The position numbers and the translations under genes were made by a program. Shown here piece by piece: positions 29,502 to 35,817 of a stretch of DNA of 64,000 nucleotides. Position 1 is the stretch's first letter; each line of letters begins with the position of its first letter. A model generated the notes under the pieces. It made no database searches. It had not been told where the DNA came from and saw only the letters and a list, made by a program, of their open reading frames with translations. The stretch is from Deltaproteobacteria bacterium (GTDB lineage: Bacteria > Desulfobacterota > Dissulfuribacteria > Dissulfuribacterales > QOAL01). Location: NCBI GenBank assembly GCA_026986785.1, contig JALSNW010000024.1:30223-94222 (forward strand), in the 5' to 3' direction.

Positions 29502-29530
29502 TTGGCAGGATCTTGGTGCCTTACTATAAT
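29502..29530 (+). promoter_or_regulatory. Sigma-70 promoter candidate TTGGCA-N17-TATAAT
   Basis: -35 TTGGCA at 29502-29507, a 17-nt spacer and a perfect -10 TATAAT at 29525-29530. GGAGGA follows 7 nt before the TTG at 29566. Confidence 0.55.
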
Positions 29531-29565
29531 TGGCTGCTTTGAAACCAATTTCTGGAGGAACTAAA

Positions 29566-30759
29566 TTGGCCCAATCAATGAAACCAGTCGTCCTGCTTAT
29601 GTTCGTTCTCTCTTTGGTCTGTGCGGCAATGGCCCATGCTGCATCGTCTGACCTCCAGATGGAGGCGCTTTCAAATCTGTCATATCCACTAAAAGACGCA
29701 CCCAATGGAAAGGTGCCCCTAAAGGGGGGCAGGTTCACGGCCCCGCTGAAAGATAGTGCTGCAAGGTTTGAGGCTCGACTCCTCACCCCCATTGCTCTTT
29801 CTTCATGGCGGGGCAAAGAGGTAGCAGCCGTTGTGCTCTCATACTCATCAGGAGGAAGTGGTGTTTTCCGAAGGCTTTTTTTCCTCACCAAGGACGAAAA
29901 AGCTTGGAGGCCCAAGGCATGGACCTGCTTGGGAGACAGGGTCCAGATCAGATACCTGGGACTTGAACACCACGGTAAGATAGTTGTTGGTATGATCAAC
30001 CAAGGCCCGAAAGATCCCCTATGTTGTCCCACCCAGAAACAGGTCAGGGTCTATATTGTAAAAGGCAAAAAATTGTTACCCAAAAAAACTGTTCCCACAC
30101 AGATTTTCCCAGACCAGATCCACTTTGCAAGAAATATCTCCTCAGGAGACATAAAGGCCATACTCGTACCTGAACAAGGCTTTTCAGCCCATGGAATAAC
30201 CAAGGTTGCACCATATCCCTCCCATGTGGCCCTGATGATAGACGGGAAAATATGGCTCAGGATCCTGCCAGCAGAGGCATACAAGAATATGTGGATGAAA
30301 AAAAATGATTTTACCATCCAGATTGCCATCAAAAGGATAGAAAGGATCATCAAGGGAAAGGAGACGGATTTTACTCCCCCCCTTCCCATTTTGCCCCCAC
30401 AGCCTGGCATCAACGATTTGGCTGCAAGGGTAGAGCTTATCGACCTGGCACAAGGGCGAGGAATTGGATTTATTGGTAGGATCTCAAAGACCTTTTCTTG
30501 TGTTAAGCCCGGAGATTTGAAATATTTCTTTTCAGGCCTAAGCAATAAGGAAAGATTCGTCTTGTCTTTTTCCCATGAAATCTCTATCAAAAAGCTGCCT
30601 CAAGGCACCTGGTCATGTGAAAATAGCATCAGTGGACTCAGGTCCCAGATTGCTAAGGTAACAGAGTTACTAAAATCAGCCGATGACAACAGATTTCGAC
30701 CTCGCATCTCGATGCTGAAAAAATTCCTTGCCTCCATATCCATCGAGGATGGGAAATAA
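29566..30759 (+). CDS. Secreted protein of unknown function
   Basis: Signal peptide MAQSMKPVVLLMFVLSLVCAAMAHA (start TTG 29566 or ATG 29578). I recognise no family. Confidence 0.6.
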   Translation: MAQSMKPVVLLMFVLSLVCAAMAHAASSDLQMEALSNLSYPLKDAPNGKVPLKGGRFTAPLKDSAARFEARLLTPIALSSWRGKEVAAVVLSYSSGGSGVFRRLFFLTKDEKAWRPKAWTCLGDRVQIRYLGLEHHGKIVVGMINQGPKDPLCCPTQKQVRVYIVKGKKLLPKKTVPTQIFPDQIHFARNISSGDIKAILVPEQGFSAHGITKVAPYPSHVALMIDGKIWLRILPAEAYKNMWMKKNDFTIQIAIKRIERIIKGKETDFTPPLPILPPQPGINDLAARVELIDLAQGRGIGFIGRISKTFSCVKPGDLKYFFSGLSNKERFVLSFSHEISIKKLPQGTWSCENSISGLRSQIAKVTELLKSADDNRFRPRISMLKKFLASISIEDGK

Positions 30760-30815: not shown

Positions 30816-30847
30816 GAAAAAAGGCCTGCCGGCAAAGCTGACAGGCC
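30816..30847 (-). terminator. Rho-independent terminator candidate
   Basis: The minus strand reads GGCCTG-tcagctttgccgg-CAGGCC followed by TTTTTT, 23 nt after the stop of the 167-aa ORF. Confidence 0.5.
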
Positions 30848-30869: not shown

Positions 30870-31373
30870 TCAACAACCTTCCACCTTCGCTACTTCTTTA
30901 ACCTTCAATTTTACCTGCTGGTCTTTTCGAGGCATAAACTCCTTTTCCGGCTGGATGACAGCCATCTTACCGTCTTGTTCCGAGTACCAAAGGATGATGC
31001 ATTTCCTATCTTTGATCATTCCTTTCAGCGTCCCTATATCCACAGGCACATCGACTACATCTATGACCTTTCCTGTGGTCTTGCCAGCATCCTTTGCTTT
31101 GAGGATGAGTGGCTGGTCCTTTCTCACTGACACCTTTTTCCCAGACTGGACAAGGACCAATGACGTCACACTCTTCGACTGGCTGGCAGGGCCGTTTTCC
31201 ATCTTTTTCACCACGCCAGCCAGGGCCTTTCCCAGTTCTTCGCCTGGCTGGACAACCGAAACCACCACACCCTTGGCCTTTCTGGCAGCCTGACACTGGG
31301 AAGATGCAGCCATTACCGTGGCCATGGACATTATCAGAATCGGTAACAGGGCCTTTATGCCAATATTTTTCAT
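30870..31373 (-). CDS. Secreted protein of unknown function, co-transcribed with the cytochrome
   Basis: Signal peptide MKNIGIKALLPILIMSMATVMAASS. Its start overlaps the cytochrome stop (ATGA). Confidence 0.6.
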   Translation of the reverse strand: MKNIGIKALLPILIMSMATVMAASSQCQAARKAKGVVVSVVQPGEELGKALAGVVKKMENGPASQSKSVTSLVLVQSGKKVSVRKDQPLILKAKDAGKTTGKVIDVVDVPVDIGTLKGMIKDRKCIILWYSEQDGKMAVIQPEKEFMPRKDQQVKLKVKEVAKVEGC

Positions 31374-31882
31374 TCTGTCACCCCTTTCCTGCTATGGCAG
31401 CCTCTACAGGAGGTTGGGCCAGTGGCCTTATGCTCCTTTTTCAGTTTCTTATGACACTTCAGACATATTCCGTGAAAATGATCCTTGAGCTTTCCAGGGC
31501 CTCCAGTTGCGTCCAGTTCTTGTTGAATACGCTTGCACCTGTCGGCCTTGAGGATATCGACCTCGGTCTTTGCACCATGATGACAAGTGGCACAAACAAA
31601 GCCTTTCCCCTCTTTTTTAAGGGCCTCTATATGGGCCTTATGAGAAAAATGATTCACCGCCTTCAGGTCTTTTTTCAGCCCCTTGAGATCTGGACACGAT
31701 TTCTGGATATTTATGTCCACATACTCTGGAGGGCCCTCTATACTGGCAGTACCTGTTTCGACAGCCAAGACCTGAGACGACATAACTGCTAAAAAAATAG
31801 CCACCAGTCCCACACACCACTCCATCGGGAATGGCTTTCTAACCCGTCTTATCAACAACAATTTGTTACCTTTGATCTTCAT
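31370..31882 (-). CDS. Periplasmic triheme c7/c3-family cytochrome
   Basis: Three CXXCH motifs (CATCH, CLKCH, CRGCH) plus FSHKAH, after a TM/signal segment. The ATG at 31882 is preceded by GGAGG, so the longer ORF to 32083 is rejected. Confidence 0.8.
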   Translation of the reverse strand: MKIKGNKLLLIRRVRKPFPMEWCVGLVAIFLAVMSSQVLAVETGTASIEGPPEYVDINIQKSCPDLKGLKKDLKAVNHFSHKAHIEALKKEGKGFVCATCHHGAKTEVDILKADRCKRIQQELDATGGPGKLKDHFHGICLKCHKKLKKEHKATGPTSCRGCHSRKGVTE

Positions 31883-32001
31883 GATACAATTTCCTCCTTT
31901 GCTCTTTGCAGAAACCCCTTGTGTCTTCCCGGCCAGCCGAAAGGTCATGGGTTTCATCAATCTATCCAAGACAACTCGAGTCTTTTTTGAACATCCCTTG
32001 G

Positions 32002-32049
32002 TGCACTGTCTTTTGGCCAAACAACAAAGTACCAATGCACTGTCTTTTG
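32002..32049. repeat. 14-bp direct repeat TGCACTGTCTTTTG, two copies
   Basis: Copies at 32002-32015 and 32036-32049 (34-bp period) in the divergent cytochrome/HTH intergenic region. Confidence 0.7.
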
Positions 32050-32082
32050 ATTTGACTCTACGGAAGAAGGATTGATAAAACA

Positions 32083-32141
32083 ATGGACATAGGGTTAAAT
32101 GTCCATAGATGTCTGGTGGACATTGGTAGACATGGTGTCTA
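32083..32141. promoter_or_regulatory. Operator-like array of (A/G)GACAT half-sites
   Basis: ATGGACAT-N8-ATGTCCAT (32083-32106), ATGTCT (32109-14), GGACAT (32118-23) and TAGACA-tgg-TGTCTA (32127-41). They lie 60-120 bp upstream of the HTH gene. Confidence 0.5.
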
Positions 32142-32202
32142 TGTAGATTATTTCTCTTTGTATTTCAGACTATTATCAAAACATGAGTAGGGCAGACCTT
32201 GC

Positions 32203-33258
32203 ATGAATAACCAGGGAGAAGGGCCCAAGATAGCCCCCGGACAACTGCCTCCAACCGTAAATCTGGACGGTTCGAAGGTGAGACAGATCAGGGAAGCCAA
32301 AGGACTAACCCAACTTTATGTGGCTACTGCGGTCGGGGTCACCACAGATACCATATCCAGATGGGAAAATAAGCGTTATCCCACTGTTAAGAGGGAAAAC
32401 GCCCTGAAATTGGCCCAGATACTTGAAGTGGATATATCTGAAATATTGGAAGACGTGGCCAATGGCACAGGAAACAATCTGTCACAAGGGGCTGAGCCCA
32501 CTAAGAACACTTCTGCCAAAGGGGATGTTGAATCCGTTGAAATTGATTCACAGATTTTGGCCCCTGAGGGGAAAGACCTCCCATCCCCATCAAAGAAGAG
32601 ATACTTCATATTCAGCCTCTTGCTCCTCCTCCTGACAATCACTGCCTTGGGTATCTATCTATATCTCAAGCCCCGCCAAGAGGCCCTGAAGATCACTGCC
32701 AGCAGATTTCTGCCAGACCACTGTGCCCCAGGACAAGTCTTCCCTGTTGTCATAGATGTCTATGTCAAGCCATCCAAACAGAGAACACTCTTGGTAAAGG
32801 ATGGTGACCACCAAGGTATTGAGTTCATCAAGGGCATCCCACACTTCACAAGCCGAAATGGCCTATATGTAAAATGGATCTTCCAGGGTGAACTCGGCTA
32901 TACCAAATTCATATATCTTGCCAGGATCAACAAGAATGCCGTGGATGGAGACGAATTTACATTTCACGGGCAAATCACTGTAAAGGAAGACAAAAAACAC
33001 TCCATCCCTATAGAAGGAAACAACCTGATATCTGCAATGCCCTTCAGTTGGGCAGACTCCAATAAGGACAACATAATAGACGACGAGGAGATACTCGAGG
33101 CCTACGACCTGCTTTCTGGCATAAAAGATGCCGAAAAAACACTGCACGAAGTGGAGGTATTATGGTCCGCTGGCAGTTACAGATGGGATATGAAAAAGAA
33201 ACGTTTTCAGCCTGTACAAAAGGCCATGGCATCAGAAGAGGCAAATGATCAAAAGTAG
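32203..33258 (+). CDS. Membrane-tethered XRE-family HTH regulator with periplasmic beta-rich domain and EF-hand-like loop
   Basis: N-terminal HTH (IREAKGLTQLYVATAVGVTTDTISRWENKR), one TM helix (YFIFSLLLLLLTITALGIYLYL) and a C-terminal domain containing DSNKDNIIDDEE, which fits the 12-residue EF-hand/dockerin loop pattern. Confidence 0.75.
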   Translation: MNNQGEGPKIAPGQLPPTVNLDGSKVRQIREAKGLTQLYVATAVGVTTDTISRWENKRYPTVKRENALKLAQILEVDISEILEDVANGTGNNLSQGAEPTKNTSAKGDVESVEIDSQILAPEGKDLPSPSKKRYFIFSLLLLLLTITALGIYLYLKPRQEALKITASRFLPDHCAPGQVFPVVIDVYVKPSKQRTLLVKDGDHQGIEFIKGIPHFTSRNGLYVKWIFQGELGYTKFIYLARINKNAVDGDEFTFHGQITVKEDKKHSIPIEGNNLISAMPFSWADSNKDNIIDDEEILEAYDLLSGIKDAEKTLHEVEVLWSAGSYRWDMKKKRFQPVQKAMASEEANDQK

Positions 33259-33288
33259 CAACCCCCACTCCAAACAAAAAGGAGAAAG

Positions 33289-33702
33289 ATGATGTATCAG
33301 CCCAAAAATTTCATACTATTTCTACCTATTCTCGTCCTTTCTTTCTTCTGTCTTTTCCCAAACCAAGCCCTTTGTGCCCAGGTTTCAGGAGATCTGAAAG
33401 CCCTATCTGGTCATAAGATCCAGATCATTCTTGATATAAAGACACCGGCGCCAAACACCATTATTATCACCTTGCACCTGCCTGCAGACACGGCTGTAGT
33501 TTCTGCACAGCCGGCAATTGCCAAGGCCCAACCAAGACAAGGCGAGGTCAACTGGCTCCTGTCCCATGTACAACCAGGCAAGTTGAGAATTCTGTGTAGG
33601 CTGAACAAGGAGGTGAAAATATCTGAATTAATCGCATCGGTCAGATATAAAAACCCTCAGACAGGAAAGATGGAAGAAGACATGATATCAGGTTCGGATT
33701 GA
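33289..33702 (+). CDS. Small secreted protein, apparently related to the periplasmic domain of the adjacent regulator
   Basis: Signal peptide, AAGGAG Shine-Dalgarno site, and a sequence pattern (..IQIILDIKTPAPN..LHLPADTAVVSAQP..GEVNWLL..PGKLRI) parallel to VVIDVYVKPSKQ..GIEFIKGIP..LYVKWIF in the regulator (by eye). Confidence 0.55.
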   Translation: MMYQPKNFILFLPILVLSFFCLFPNQALCAQVSGDLKALSGHKIQIILDIKTPAPNTIIITLHLPADTAVVSAQPAIAKAQPRQGEVNWLLSHVQPGKLRILCRLNKEVKISELIASVRYKNPQTGKMEEDMISGSD

Positions 33703-34505: not shown

Positions 34506-35817
34506 ATGGAGACCCTAGTTATAGGAATAGCCTCTTTGCTTGGTCTTTACATGGCCTGGAACATTGGTGCAAACGACGTTGCCAATTCAATGGCAGACGC
34601 AGTTGGATCCAGGGCACTGACCATTGGCCAGGCCGTTGTACTGGCTGGTATCTGTGAATTCGCTGGGGCGGTATTGGTCGGCGCCCCTGTAACAGACACG
34701 GTAAGAAAGGGTATCGTGGATCCAGACAGTTTCCTGGCCCTCTCGGGAGTGAGCCATGAACAGGCTGCAGCCCTCTTTATCATAGGGATGATCTCTGCCC
34801 TCATGTCTGCGGCCATGTGGCTCCACATCTCCTCGTTCCTGGGTATGCCTGTATCCACAACCCACTCCATCGTTGGGGCAGTGGCTGGTTTTGGGGTGAT
34901 AGCTGCAGGATGGAGTTCAGTACAATGGCACAAGATGGCCATGATAGTTGCCAGTTGGTTCGTATCTCCGATTGCCGGTGGGTTCATGGCCTATGTACTT
35001 TTCAAATTCATCAACAGGGCAATCCTTGGCCGGGGGCGACCCACAAGGGCTGCCATAATATATGCACCCTATATAGTCAGTGCGATAACAGCCACTGTGG
35101 TCCTGGCGACTATCTACAAAGGTTTGAGGAATGTGATCCACAATATCAATTGGCTCACTCCCGGGGTATCCGTACTAATCACCATAGTGGTGAGTATCCT
35201 TGCAGGCATAACATCGAGAATGCTTTTAAGACACCGGCTGAAGGGCAAGGACAAACTACCTGTTGGACGACAACTCGAACTTGTAGAGGAGGTATTTGTT
35301 CCAATAGTCATCATCACCTCTTGTTCCGTTGCCTTTGCCCACGGCGCCAATGATGTAGCCAATGCTATAGGGCCCTTGGCAGCAATTGTGAGGGTGGTCC
35401 AGACAGGAACGGTGCTGCAGAAAGTAGGGGGTCCCTTTCTGGGTCTTGGTACTTGGAGGCACTGGGATAGTTATAGGTCTTGCTACATTTGGCTATCGTG
35501 TGATGCGAACAGTAGGCACTGAGATTACAGAGATCACCCCATCTCGAGGCGTAGCAGCGGATCTGGCAGCCACTGCTACCGTACTCATATGCACCAGGCT
35601 GAAACTACCCATTTCAACGACCCATACCCTGGTGGGAGCAATCCTTGGGATAGGGCTCGCCAGAGGTCTGGGAGGCATCAATAGGTCGGTCACCAACAAG
35701 ATCTTTGGGGCATGGTTCGTTACTGTACCAGCAGCAGCAGCCGTACTATGCATCCTCCTTTTTTTGCTGGGAGAGTTCTTCTTTTTTGACTATCTTACCG
35801 CAGTCTGTACAAAATAG
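34506..35817 (+). pseudogene. PiT-family inorganic phosphate transporter, reading frame broken at a G5 run
   Basis: ORFs 34506..35522 and 35446..35817 are the two halves of one PiT protein (GANDVANS, two copies; PISTTHTLVGAILG). Removing one G from GGGGG at 35427-35431 restores ..LQKVGVPFWVLVLGGTGIVIG... Confidence 0.8.

Follow-up and report, generated by a model that had tools for sequence, protein, structure and literature searches.

Gene arrangement of the locus

The DNA analysed is a 64,000-nt stretch of a deltaproteobacterial contig (JALSNW010000024.1, positions 30,223 to 94,222), hereafter called the window, in whose numbering positions are given. It contains a small gene module, in which the genes for a membrane-anchored regulator of the XRE family and a small secreted partner are divergent from those for a triheme cytochrome and a secreted protein ending in Glu-Gly-Cys (EGC). 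The features are listed in Table 1. A preliminary description, made from the sequence alone, had proposed that these genes form a periplasm-sensing circuit; the observation was confirmed with corrected coordinates, and its interpretation was partly supported. Each of the four genes occurs only once within the 64-kb window.

The longest open reading frame (ORF) of the cytochrome opens at a TTG codon (32083). The ATG codon at 31882 is preceded by a GGAGGA ribosome-binding site, and fits the 171-aa gene calls in relatives (171 codons including the stop). The sequence places the true start at 31882 rather than at 32083, and therefore the intergenic region spans 31883-32202 and not 32002-32141, as had been given. 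The gene itself was present as described, and so was the accompanying secreted protein, which lies outside the range first assigned to the module. The stop codon of the cytochrome gene and the start codon of the 167-aa protein gene share four nucleotides (ATGA), and a hairpin with a T-run follows the latter; these suggest that the two genes form an operon, and the hairpin is likely the end of the cytochrome-EGC transcript. The regulator and partner genes on the other strand are separated by 30 nt.

Homologous loci were surveyed using one genome per species. A total of 413 loci were confirmed and 80 were retrieved; the counts of gene content given below refer to these 80 loci and the window. 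Individual related loci are denoted by L numbers.

Table 1. Features of the locus in the window, and related loci encoding other EGC-ended proteins.
Feature	Position	Strand	Basis
Hairpin and T-run 3' of the EGC protein gene	30817-30847	-	Sequence reading; homologs with similar hairpins
Secreted protein, 167 aa, C-terminal Glu-Gly-Cys	30870-31373	-	ORF map and gene calls of relatives
Periplasmic triheme cytochrome, c3/c7-type, 170 residues	31370-31882	-	Cytochrom_CIII; start from ribosome-binding site and homolog calls
Intergenic region between cytochrome and regulator, 320 bp	31883-32202
Conserved non-coding DNA element, proposed operator/promoter	32072-32137	+	nhmmer, alignment of loci
Membrane-anchored XRE-family regulator, 351 aa	32203-33258	+	ORF, HTH_3, AlphaFold2, full-length homologs
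Cytoplasmic helix-turn-helix, residues 26-81	32278-32445	+	HTH_3, 41-homolog alignment
Low-complexity linker, residues 88-127	32464-32583	+	pLDDT <50, length and sequence variable
Single transmembrane helix, residues 134-155	32602-32667	+	Kyte-Doolittle, AlphaFold2 helix 131-155
Periplasmic Ig-like beta-sandwich (predicted), residues 163-278	32689-33036	+	AlphaFold2 strands with pLDDT >90, Foldseek, hhalign
EF-hand-like loop of 12 residues, DSNKDNIIDDEE, residues 285-296	33055-33090	+	Conservation, EF-hand_5, AlphaFold2
Small secreted partner, 137 aa	33289-33702	+	ORF, profile searches, hhalign
PhoU_div, PiT phosphate transporter and oligoendopeptidase PepF genes	from 33730	+
EGC-ended cytochromes	L038, L045, L047, L051, L056, L060, L065, L068, L078, L079, L088
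EGC-ended mini-proteins	L037, L043, L044, L052, L053, L057, L066, L077, L084

Architecture of the regulator

The N-terminal part of the regulator matched Pfam HTH_3 (PF01381) at residues 26-81 (E 3.4e-12; 46.7 bits, cut-off 23), and the same model was matched by all 41 regulator homologs. The recognition region TTDTISRWEN of this helix-turn-helix (HTH) is nearly invariant in the 41 sequences, in which R30, E31, L35-Y39, V46, T47, D49, T50 and S52-N56 are invariant. Beyond the HTH, no Pfam or NCBIfam family was found for the remaining residues. The AlphaFold2 model was built with the 41 homologs and has a mean predicted local distance difference test score (pLDDT) of 85.4. It consists of an HTH bundle (residues 18-81), a disordered linker (88-127), a helix (131-155) and a beta-sandwich (163-278), followed by a coil with the loop DSNKDNIIDDEE (285-296), two helices (294-304 and 308-323) and a hairpin (326-337). 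Residues 134-155 are the sole segment hydrophobic enough for a membrane span on the Kyte-Doolittle scale, with KKR flanking the helix N-terminally. Since the HTH must be cytoplasmic and there is one transmembrane segment, residues 160-351 should be periplasmic. In this predicted topology, one chain carries a cytoplasmic DNA-binding domain together with a membrane span, as is characteristic of the transmembrane transcription regulators (TTRs), which have one or more such spans. The topology originally proposed (cytoplasmic XRE HTH, one transmembrane helix and a beta-rich periplasmic domain) agrees with the HTH_3 match, the model and the hydrophobicity.

In a Foldseek search of the PDB, only generic immunoglobulin (Ig)-like structures matched the sandwich, namely CLIPPER (9ifr, 2e-6), PapD-like proteins, YcnI, cohesins and a pilin; the TM-scores, taken on the target, were 0.4-0.67. 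A sequence profile search of the PDB with the regulator gave weak HTH matches only, and found no solved relative of the periplasmic part. The Pfam family Chlam_OMP6 was weakly touched by six of the 41 regulators; because this family is related to the DUF11 repeat, these weak matches are consistent with a DUF11-like Ig fold.

The loop DSNKDNIIDDEE opens a C-terminal subdomain (residues 279-337) of two helices and a hairpin. Among the 41 homologs (34-70% identity), W283, A284, D285, I292, D294 and L298 are invariant, whereas N287, D289, D293, E296 and I297 are conserved at 90% or more. The canonical EF-hand positions 1, 3, 5, 8, 9 and 12 are thus retained, and this conservation argues that the loop pattern is real and under selection. 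The Pfam model EF-hand_5 weakly matched 16 of the 41 homologs (best E 4.6e-4), and the window regulator itself reached no EF-hand model of Pfam. The Ca-binding loop pattern noticed in the preliminary description was therefore borne out by the homologs.

The loop is similar to those of dockerins and EF-hands in its 12-residue D-x-N-x-D-x-x-I-D-x-x-E pattern followed by a helix. Unlike the dockerin pair or the calmodulin-type EF-hand pair, the window regulator has one loop; its position 12 is occupied by Glu, the residue found there in EF-hands, and there was no match to Dockerin_1. In the AlphaFold2 model, a strand and coil precede the loop, and the only adjoining helix comes after it, beginning at loop position 10; neither an entering helix nor a second loop is present, so that the model has neither a helix-loop-helix nor a paired EF-hand. 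The arrangement of a loop and helix without an entering helix is typical of dockerins and other extracellular structural Ca sites. Because the modelled loop lacks an entering helix, it seems to resemble such a structural site more than a switch EF-hand. Ca2+ binding by the loop is likely from its sequence, and by analogy a structural role of the ion would be more likely than a sensing role.

The secreted partner as a paralog of the sandwich

The small protein encoded downstream of the regulator has a signal-peptide-like N-terminus. BLASTP revealed no similarity between the regulator and this partner (E 68), and a word-seeded search recovered just six partner homologs, which suggests that the partner is fast-evolving. 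A profile constructed from five downstream proteins of related loci recovered a homolog directly 3' of the regulator in nearly every locus. Moreover, in the set of 3663 ORFs the same profile matched 25 regulators in their periplasmic domain, with a best E of 2e-8. Alignment of 76 partners with 84 regulator C-terminal regions by hhalign gave a probability of 97% (E 1e-10 to 3e-11, 47 columns), and under a looser setting the alignment extended to 94 columns, i.e., the whole sandwich (regulator residues ~174-271). The controls with the partner as query were 13% for the EGC family and 1.4% for the cytochrome family, and 30 column-shuffled alignments never gave more than 9%. The profile and hhalign matches, with these low controls, argue that the partner is a free paralog of the regulator sandwich that lacks the Ca-loop subdomain. 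The paralogy that had been suggested for the two periplasmic domains thus extends to the beta-sandwich and stops before the loop.

Distribution and gene content of the module

All 80 retrieved loci, out of the 413 confirmed, are from Desulfobulbia/Thermodesulfobacteriota, and full-length regulator homologs occur throughout. Their sources are Desulfobulbaceae, Desulfurivibrionaceae, SEEP-SRB2, metagenome-assembled genomes (MAGs) labelled as Thermodesulfobacteria, Desulfobulbus sp. Tol-SR and Hydrosulfovibrio ferrireducens. Among the Desulfobulbia are organisms that reduce sulfate or disproportionate sulfur, others that are partners of methane-oxidising archaea (the SEEP-SRB2 loci among the matches belong to such partners), and relatives of cable bacteria.

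The partner gene lies directly 3' of the regulator gene in 70 of the 76 species-level loci with enough flanking sequence. A divergent small cytochrome with at least three hemes (3- or 4-heme) was found within 800 nt in 35 of 67 loci. An EGC-ended protein is encoded divergently no farther than 1.5 kb away in 43 of 67, and eight of these loci lack the cytochrome. The divergent cytochrome arrangement, with both 3- and 4-heme types, is kept from 70% down to about 36-40% regulator identity, which upholds the proposed divergent operon. The co-occurrence expected for all four genes holds for the regulator and partner; the four are not a fixed unit. The constant core is the regulator with its partner, and the divergent gene is variable, the cytochrome being replaced by other genes.

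One MAG (CAZNKP01) contains the whole module twice, as paralogous copies (L016 and L020) that each comprise the EGC protein, the triheme cytochrome, the regulator and the partner, and therefore the module duplicates as a unit. In a more distant branch (L007, 6394-10996; L009, 6379-10993), a multi-pass membrane protein of 154-159 aa replaces the triheme cytochrome beside the EGC gene. Large multiheme cytochromes, in a cluster, and a beta-propeller protein are encoded just downstream on the other strand in these two loci, which suggests a link to outer-membrane electron transfer.

Conserved DNA element between the divergent genes

The intergenic region contains a conserved block with a promoter-like arrangement, TTGATA-17 nt-TTAAAT (window 32070-32150). 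The sequences ATGGACAT and ATGTCCAT flank the -10-like box, and are followed by GACAT/ATGTC pentamers about 10 bp apart. The same block is kept in loci with just ~40% regulator identity, and variants could be recognised by eye in more distant loci, e.g., GCCGACATCGGTCGATGTCTACC. An nhmmer search of the 64-kb window gave a single match (E 1.4e-14) and no other copy; in ~835 kb of related loci there were 41 matches, most of them at most about 310 nt upstream of a regulator gene. The remaining matches include one beside a cytochrome (L026), four displaced ones in Desulfobulbus-type loci, and a few that are weak or at contig edges. Palindromes of the form GAYAT-N5-8-ATRTC are ~13-fold enriched upstream of the regulators, and at least three pentamers occur in 30 of 79 regulator upstream regions compared with 72 of 1947 background windows. 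A DNA-only metagenome scan of 241 million records with a 22-nt pattern recovered 18 contigs; in each, to the extent that the contig covers the locus, the element is situated between a divergent triheme cytochrome and a regulator.

A structured RNA or riboswitch was considered and rejected, as RNAalifold gave 0 pairs for 24 sequences and Rfam contained nothing relevant. The alignments indicate that the element is conserved as a DNA sequence, and not as an RNA structure.

Two rearranged loci are informative on the gene that the element serves. A PIN-toxin (toxin-antitoxin) cassette is inserted between the element and the regulator in L026 (1194-3276), and MotB/MotA-like genes stand in the place of the regulator in L105 (520-2671). 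The element remains ~70-80 nt from the cytochrome start in both, and therefore it should serve the cytochrome promoter and not that of the regulator alone. The near-invariant recognition region of the HTH, together with an element confined to the neighbourhood, is the signature expected of a regulator and its operator. The element is proposed as the putative operator of this regulator.

The displaced variants are located at 9836-9898 in L054, 9779-9841 in L070, 8390-8452 in L071 and 6645-6704 in L058; none is upstream of the regulator of its locus. They lie ~100-170 nt 5' of a gene whose product is secreted and glycine-zipper/proline-rich (Rick_17kDa_Anti); this gene may be another target of regulators of this family. 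In the window, a perfect 14-nt direct repeat, TGCACTGTCTTTTG, is also present on the cytochrome side of the intergenic region, at 32002-32015 and 32036-32049; its copies are 34 nt apart, and the repeat is not kept in L001.

The cytochrome and the Glu-Gly-Cys proteins

The window cytochrome has three CXXCH heme motifs (CATCH, CLKCH and CRGCH). It matched Cytochrom_CIII (E 1.1e-8; 35.8 bits, cut-off 22.9), which assigns it to class III (c3/c7); Cytochrome_C7 gave 21.6 bits, below the cut-off of 24.8. Among solved structures, its closest relative is the N-terminal domain of HmcA, a 16-heme protein (E 2e-12).

The 167-aa protein (C-terminus at window 30870-30881) and all its counterparts terminate in (V/I/M/L)-E-G-C. 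EGC is the commonest C-terminal tripeptide in the loci, ending 55 of the 3663 ORFs compared with 18 for the next one. It ends three unrelated types of secreted protein, all encoded in the divergent position: the beta-rich proteins of ~165 aa, mini-proteins with precursors of 68-77 aa, and tetraheme c3 cytochromes of 141-153 aa ending in KKAVEGC. The conserved DNA element and the EGC tail on three protein types are newly described here, and the EGC tail is the most unusual part of the module. The tail shared by unrelated proteins may be a sign of a modification, a cargo or a step of recognition that they have in common. A literature search found nothing specific on this regulator family or on EGC-ended cytochromes.

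Read-through of the EGC stop as selenocysteine was rejected, because the stops are TAA (18), TGA (9) and TAG (6), and terminator hairpins follow. The AlphaFold2 model of the 167-aa protein, with a pLDDT of 76 and a 4-sequence alignment only, has two small barrels and a disordered tail. This model had no match with E <0.1 in the PDB, and the weak ones are small beta-barrels. Flexible C-terminal Cys arms occur in sulfur carriers such as DsrC and SoxY, which is an analogy only; a SoxY-like sulfur-carrier fold was unsupported, as no SoxY Pfam match and no PDB match with E <0.1 were obtained. The mini-proteins scored 56.2 and 51.0 bits against the NCBIfam model ExtJ (NF040942, cut-off 52.5), and the window 167-aa protein had no NCBIfam match, including ExtJ. 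Comparison of the ~165-aa EGC family with the mini-proteins by hhalign gave 94%, partly carried by the signal peptides; the two families appear to be distantly related. The 167-aa EGC family is narrow, with 28 representatives in a profile search of 1.84 billion proteins.

Comparison with known regulators

The TTRs are widespread, and the HTH is their commonest DNA-binding domain according to a census (PMC10269533). The XRE HTH on a ToxR-like topology, pointed out in the preliminary description, is therefore not unusual. As in the TTRs of the ToxR/CadC type, the window regulator has an N-terminal cytoplasmic DNA-binding domain, a single transmembrane helix, a C-terminal periplasmic sensor and putative targets nearby. 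ToxR, CadC, TcpP and VtrA contain an OmpR-type winged helix; whereas the window regulator has an XRE/Cro-C1 HTH, and the absence of Trans_reg_C among its matches up to E = 1 places it outside the ToxR family. The predicted periplasmic part is also unlike the ToxR/CadC type, being an Ig-like sandwich with a Ca-loop subdomain and without a Pfam family.

Cassettes of a regulator and a partner are known, such as VtrA/VtrC and ToxR/ToxS (PMC9214523). The regulator gene in these systems, as in the window, is directly followed by the gene of a fast-evolving periplasmic partner, and the short gap and co-conservation found here are those of a co-component system. However, VtrC and ToxS are membrane-anchored lipocalin-like barrels unrelated to the regulator; whereas the window partner is a secreted Ig-like paralog. 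If the idea of a regulator with a periplasmic partner holds here, it would no longer be confined to the enteric ToxR/VtrA type, and would include an XRE regulator with a partner that copies its own sensor domain.

For the divergent genes, the small periplasmic protein ExtJ, encoded beside periplasmic cytochromes in the extHIJKL cluster of Geobacter sulfurreducens (PMC6148476, PMC5877670), offers a comparison. The EGC mini-proteins are also small, periplasmic and beside cytochromes, in divergent position. The ext clusters of Geobacter have a LysR-family regulator on the opposite strand (PMC6148476). In this they differ from the present loci with their XRE membrane regulator.

Another membrane-bound XRE-type regulator is BcrR of Enterococcus faecalis, a one-component bacitracin sensor. 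The XRE HTH and membrane part of BcrR are like those of the window regulator; however, BcrR has four transmembrane helices, and is not known to have a large periplasmic domain or a partner. Membership in the RodZ family was rejected, since HTH_25 and DUF4115 were absent among the matches of the regulator up to E = 1; RodZ binds MreB, and has no known link to a DNA element or a divergent operon.

Proposed mechanism and alternative explanations

The reading favoured here, with slightly better than even confidence, is a transmembrane one-component regulator with a co-transcribed periplasmic partner ('co-component'-like), under whose control the cytochrome-EGC operon and probably the regulator gene would stand. 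Tethered by ~40 flexible linker residues, the cytoplasmic XRE HTH would bind the GACAT-repeat element between its own gene and the cytochrome operon, and from this element would control that operon and probably its own promoter too. The Ig-like sandwich would pair in the periplasm with its free secreted paralog, and the complex, stabilised by Ca2+ in the EF-hand-like loop, would receive the signal. The most specific lead to this signal might be the EGC tail common to the divergent products, and the circuit could then be a read-out of their state or amount. The data themselves establish the domain layout, the paralogy of the partner, the co-conservation of the genes and the DNA element with its distribution. 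From these we infer that DNA and Ca2+ are bound, that a heterodimer forms, which way regulation runs and what kind of signal is sensed; judged from comparative data, the regulator may also control electron transfer. The module is a concrete candidate for a regulator-operator-target triad of small periplasmic cytochromes, with its 413 confirmed species-representative loci.

Several observations weigh against the proposed circuit. About half of the loci have no divergent cytochrome, and therefore the regulator is not tied to it. The partner is not lipocalin-like, in contrast to those of the known co-component systems. No terminator-like site was found after the small partner gene, and therefore a longer operon with PhoU_div, PiT and PepF is possible, of which the regulator-partner pair may be the head. 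The centres of the half-sites ATGGACAT and ATGTCCAT are 16 bp apart, an unusual spacing among dimeric XRE operators, and in more distant loci the second half-site arm is degenerate. In the four Desulfobulbus-type loci, the element variant is 3.4-4.9 kb away from the regulator, beside the glycine-zipper gene. Moreover, the block looks like a plain promoter, and part of its conservation may be unrelated to the regulator.

Another explanation is that the regulator and its partner are real, and that the adjacent cytochrome is inherited synteny, with the element serving as the autoregulated promoter of the regulator only. It would account for the loci without a cytochrome, and the nhmmer match in the window group is 66 nt from the regulator start compared with ~190 nt from the cytochrome start. 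However, the divergent arrangement lasts from 70% to ~36% regulator identity with both 3- and 4-heme cytochromes, the element stays with the cytochrome when the genes separate (L026 and L105), and the replacements at the divergent position share the EGC tail; this explanation is considered improbable. Even less credence is given to a RodZ-like membrane scaffold in place of a transcription factor. The target of its HTH would be a protein, and its sandwich, together with the paralog, would arrange envelope proteins such as the cytochrome and the EGC proteins. In RodZ, too, an XRE-like HTH is followed by one transmembrane helix and a periplasmic beta-rich domain, the Foldseek matches include cohesins and adhesin/pilin sandwiches, and the dockerin-like loop-helix adjoins a cohesin-like sandwich. 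The scaffold is nevertheless opposed by the missing HTH_25 and DUF4115 matches, by the conserved DNA element that co-occurs with the regulator gene, and by the divergence from the target operon, which is typical of regulators.

The regulator might also be a latent membrane-held repressor or activator freed by regulated proteolysis, with the HTH then acting as a soluble factor and the partner guarding the periplasmic domain against a site-1 protease, in the way that ToxS protects ToxR. The HTH and the membrane helix are joined by a long disordered linker, the periplasmic partner is tightly co-conserved, and the cleavage of membrane regulators is well documented in general; all of this would fit. 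Yet the same linker suits DNA binding from the membrane equally, and no conserved protease gene was found in the neighbourhood; PepF (M3) follows in several loci, but is taken to be a cytoplasmic oligopeptidase. There is some chance that release by proteolysis applies, albeit a small one. A dedicated periplasmic sensor of Ca2+ or another divalent metal, in which the switching of the regulator, and through it the level of cytochrome expression, would depend on whether the loop is occupied, seems unlikely. In its favour, the liganding residues (positions 1, 3, 5, 9 and 12) and the hydrophobic residue (position 8) are (near-)invariant, the loop is located in the periplasmic sensor part, and there are the weak EF-hand matches in 16 of the 41 homologs. 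On the other hand, a single loop without an entering helix or a paired loop is generally the pattern of a structural site, and the window regulator reaches no EF-hand model. Many hosts appear from their record titles to be marine or hydrothermal, where Ca2+ is high and steady, and a c3/c7 cytochrome has no known tie to Ca2+.

For the favoured co-component-like circuit, a more specific form of the signal can also be considered, and it is regarded as speculative and improbable. The EGC tail might be a tag bound by the Ig/Ca-loop domain and the free paralog, which would sense the state of the terminal thiol (free, persulfidated, metal-bound or modified) on the c3 cytochromes, the ExtJ-like mini-proteins and the 167-aa double barrel. 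The tag is considered because, apart from the divergent genes, only the regulator and its partner are conserved in the module. If true, this would be a new type of periplasmic product feedback, or of chalcogen/redox sensing of electron and sulfur carriers, in Desulfobulbia.

Neighbouring genes

A secreted protein of 409 aa without a family match is encoded at window 29530-30759 (+), convergent to the EGC gene. Its gene is kept at this place only in the closest relatives (L001 and L003), and therefore lies outside the module. On the other side, the PiT (PHO4) gene at window 34506-35817 is broken into two frames, with the shift near 35425-35440. The frame break is caused by one extra base in a G/C run, which reads AAAGTAGGGGGTCCC in the window and AAAGTTGGTGTGCC in L001. 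The PiT homologs are intact (435 aa), and the window copy is either an assembly error or a pseudogene.

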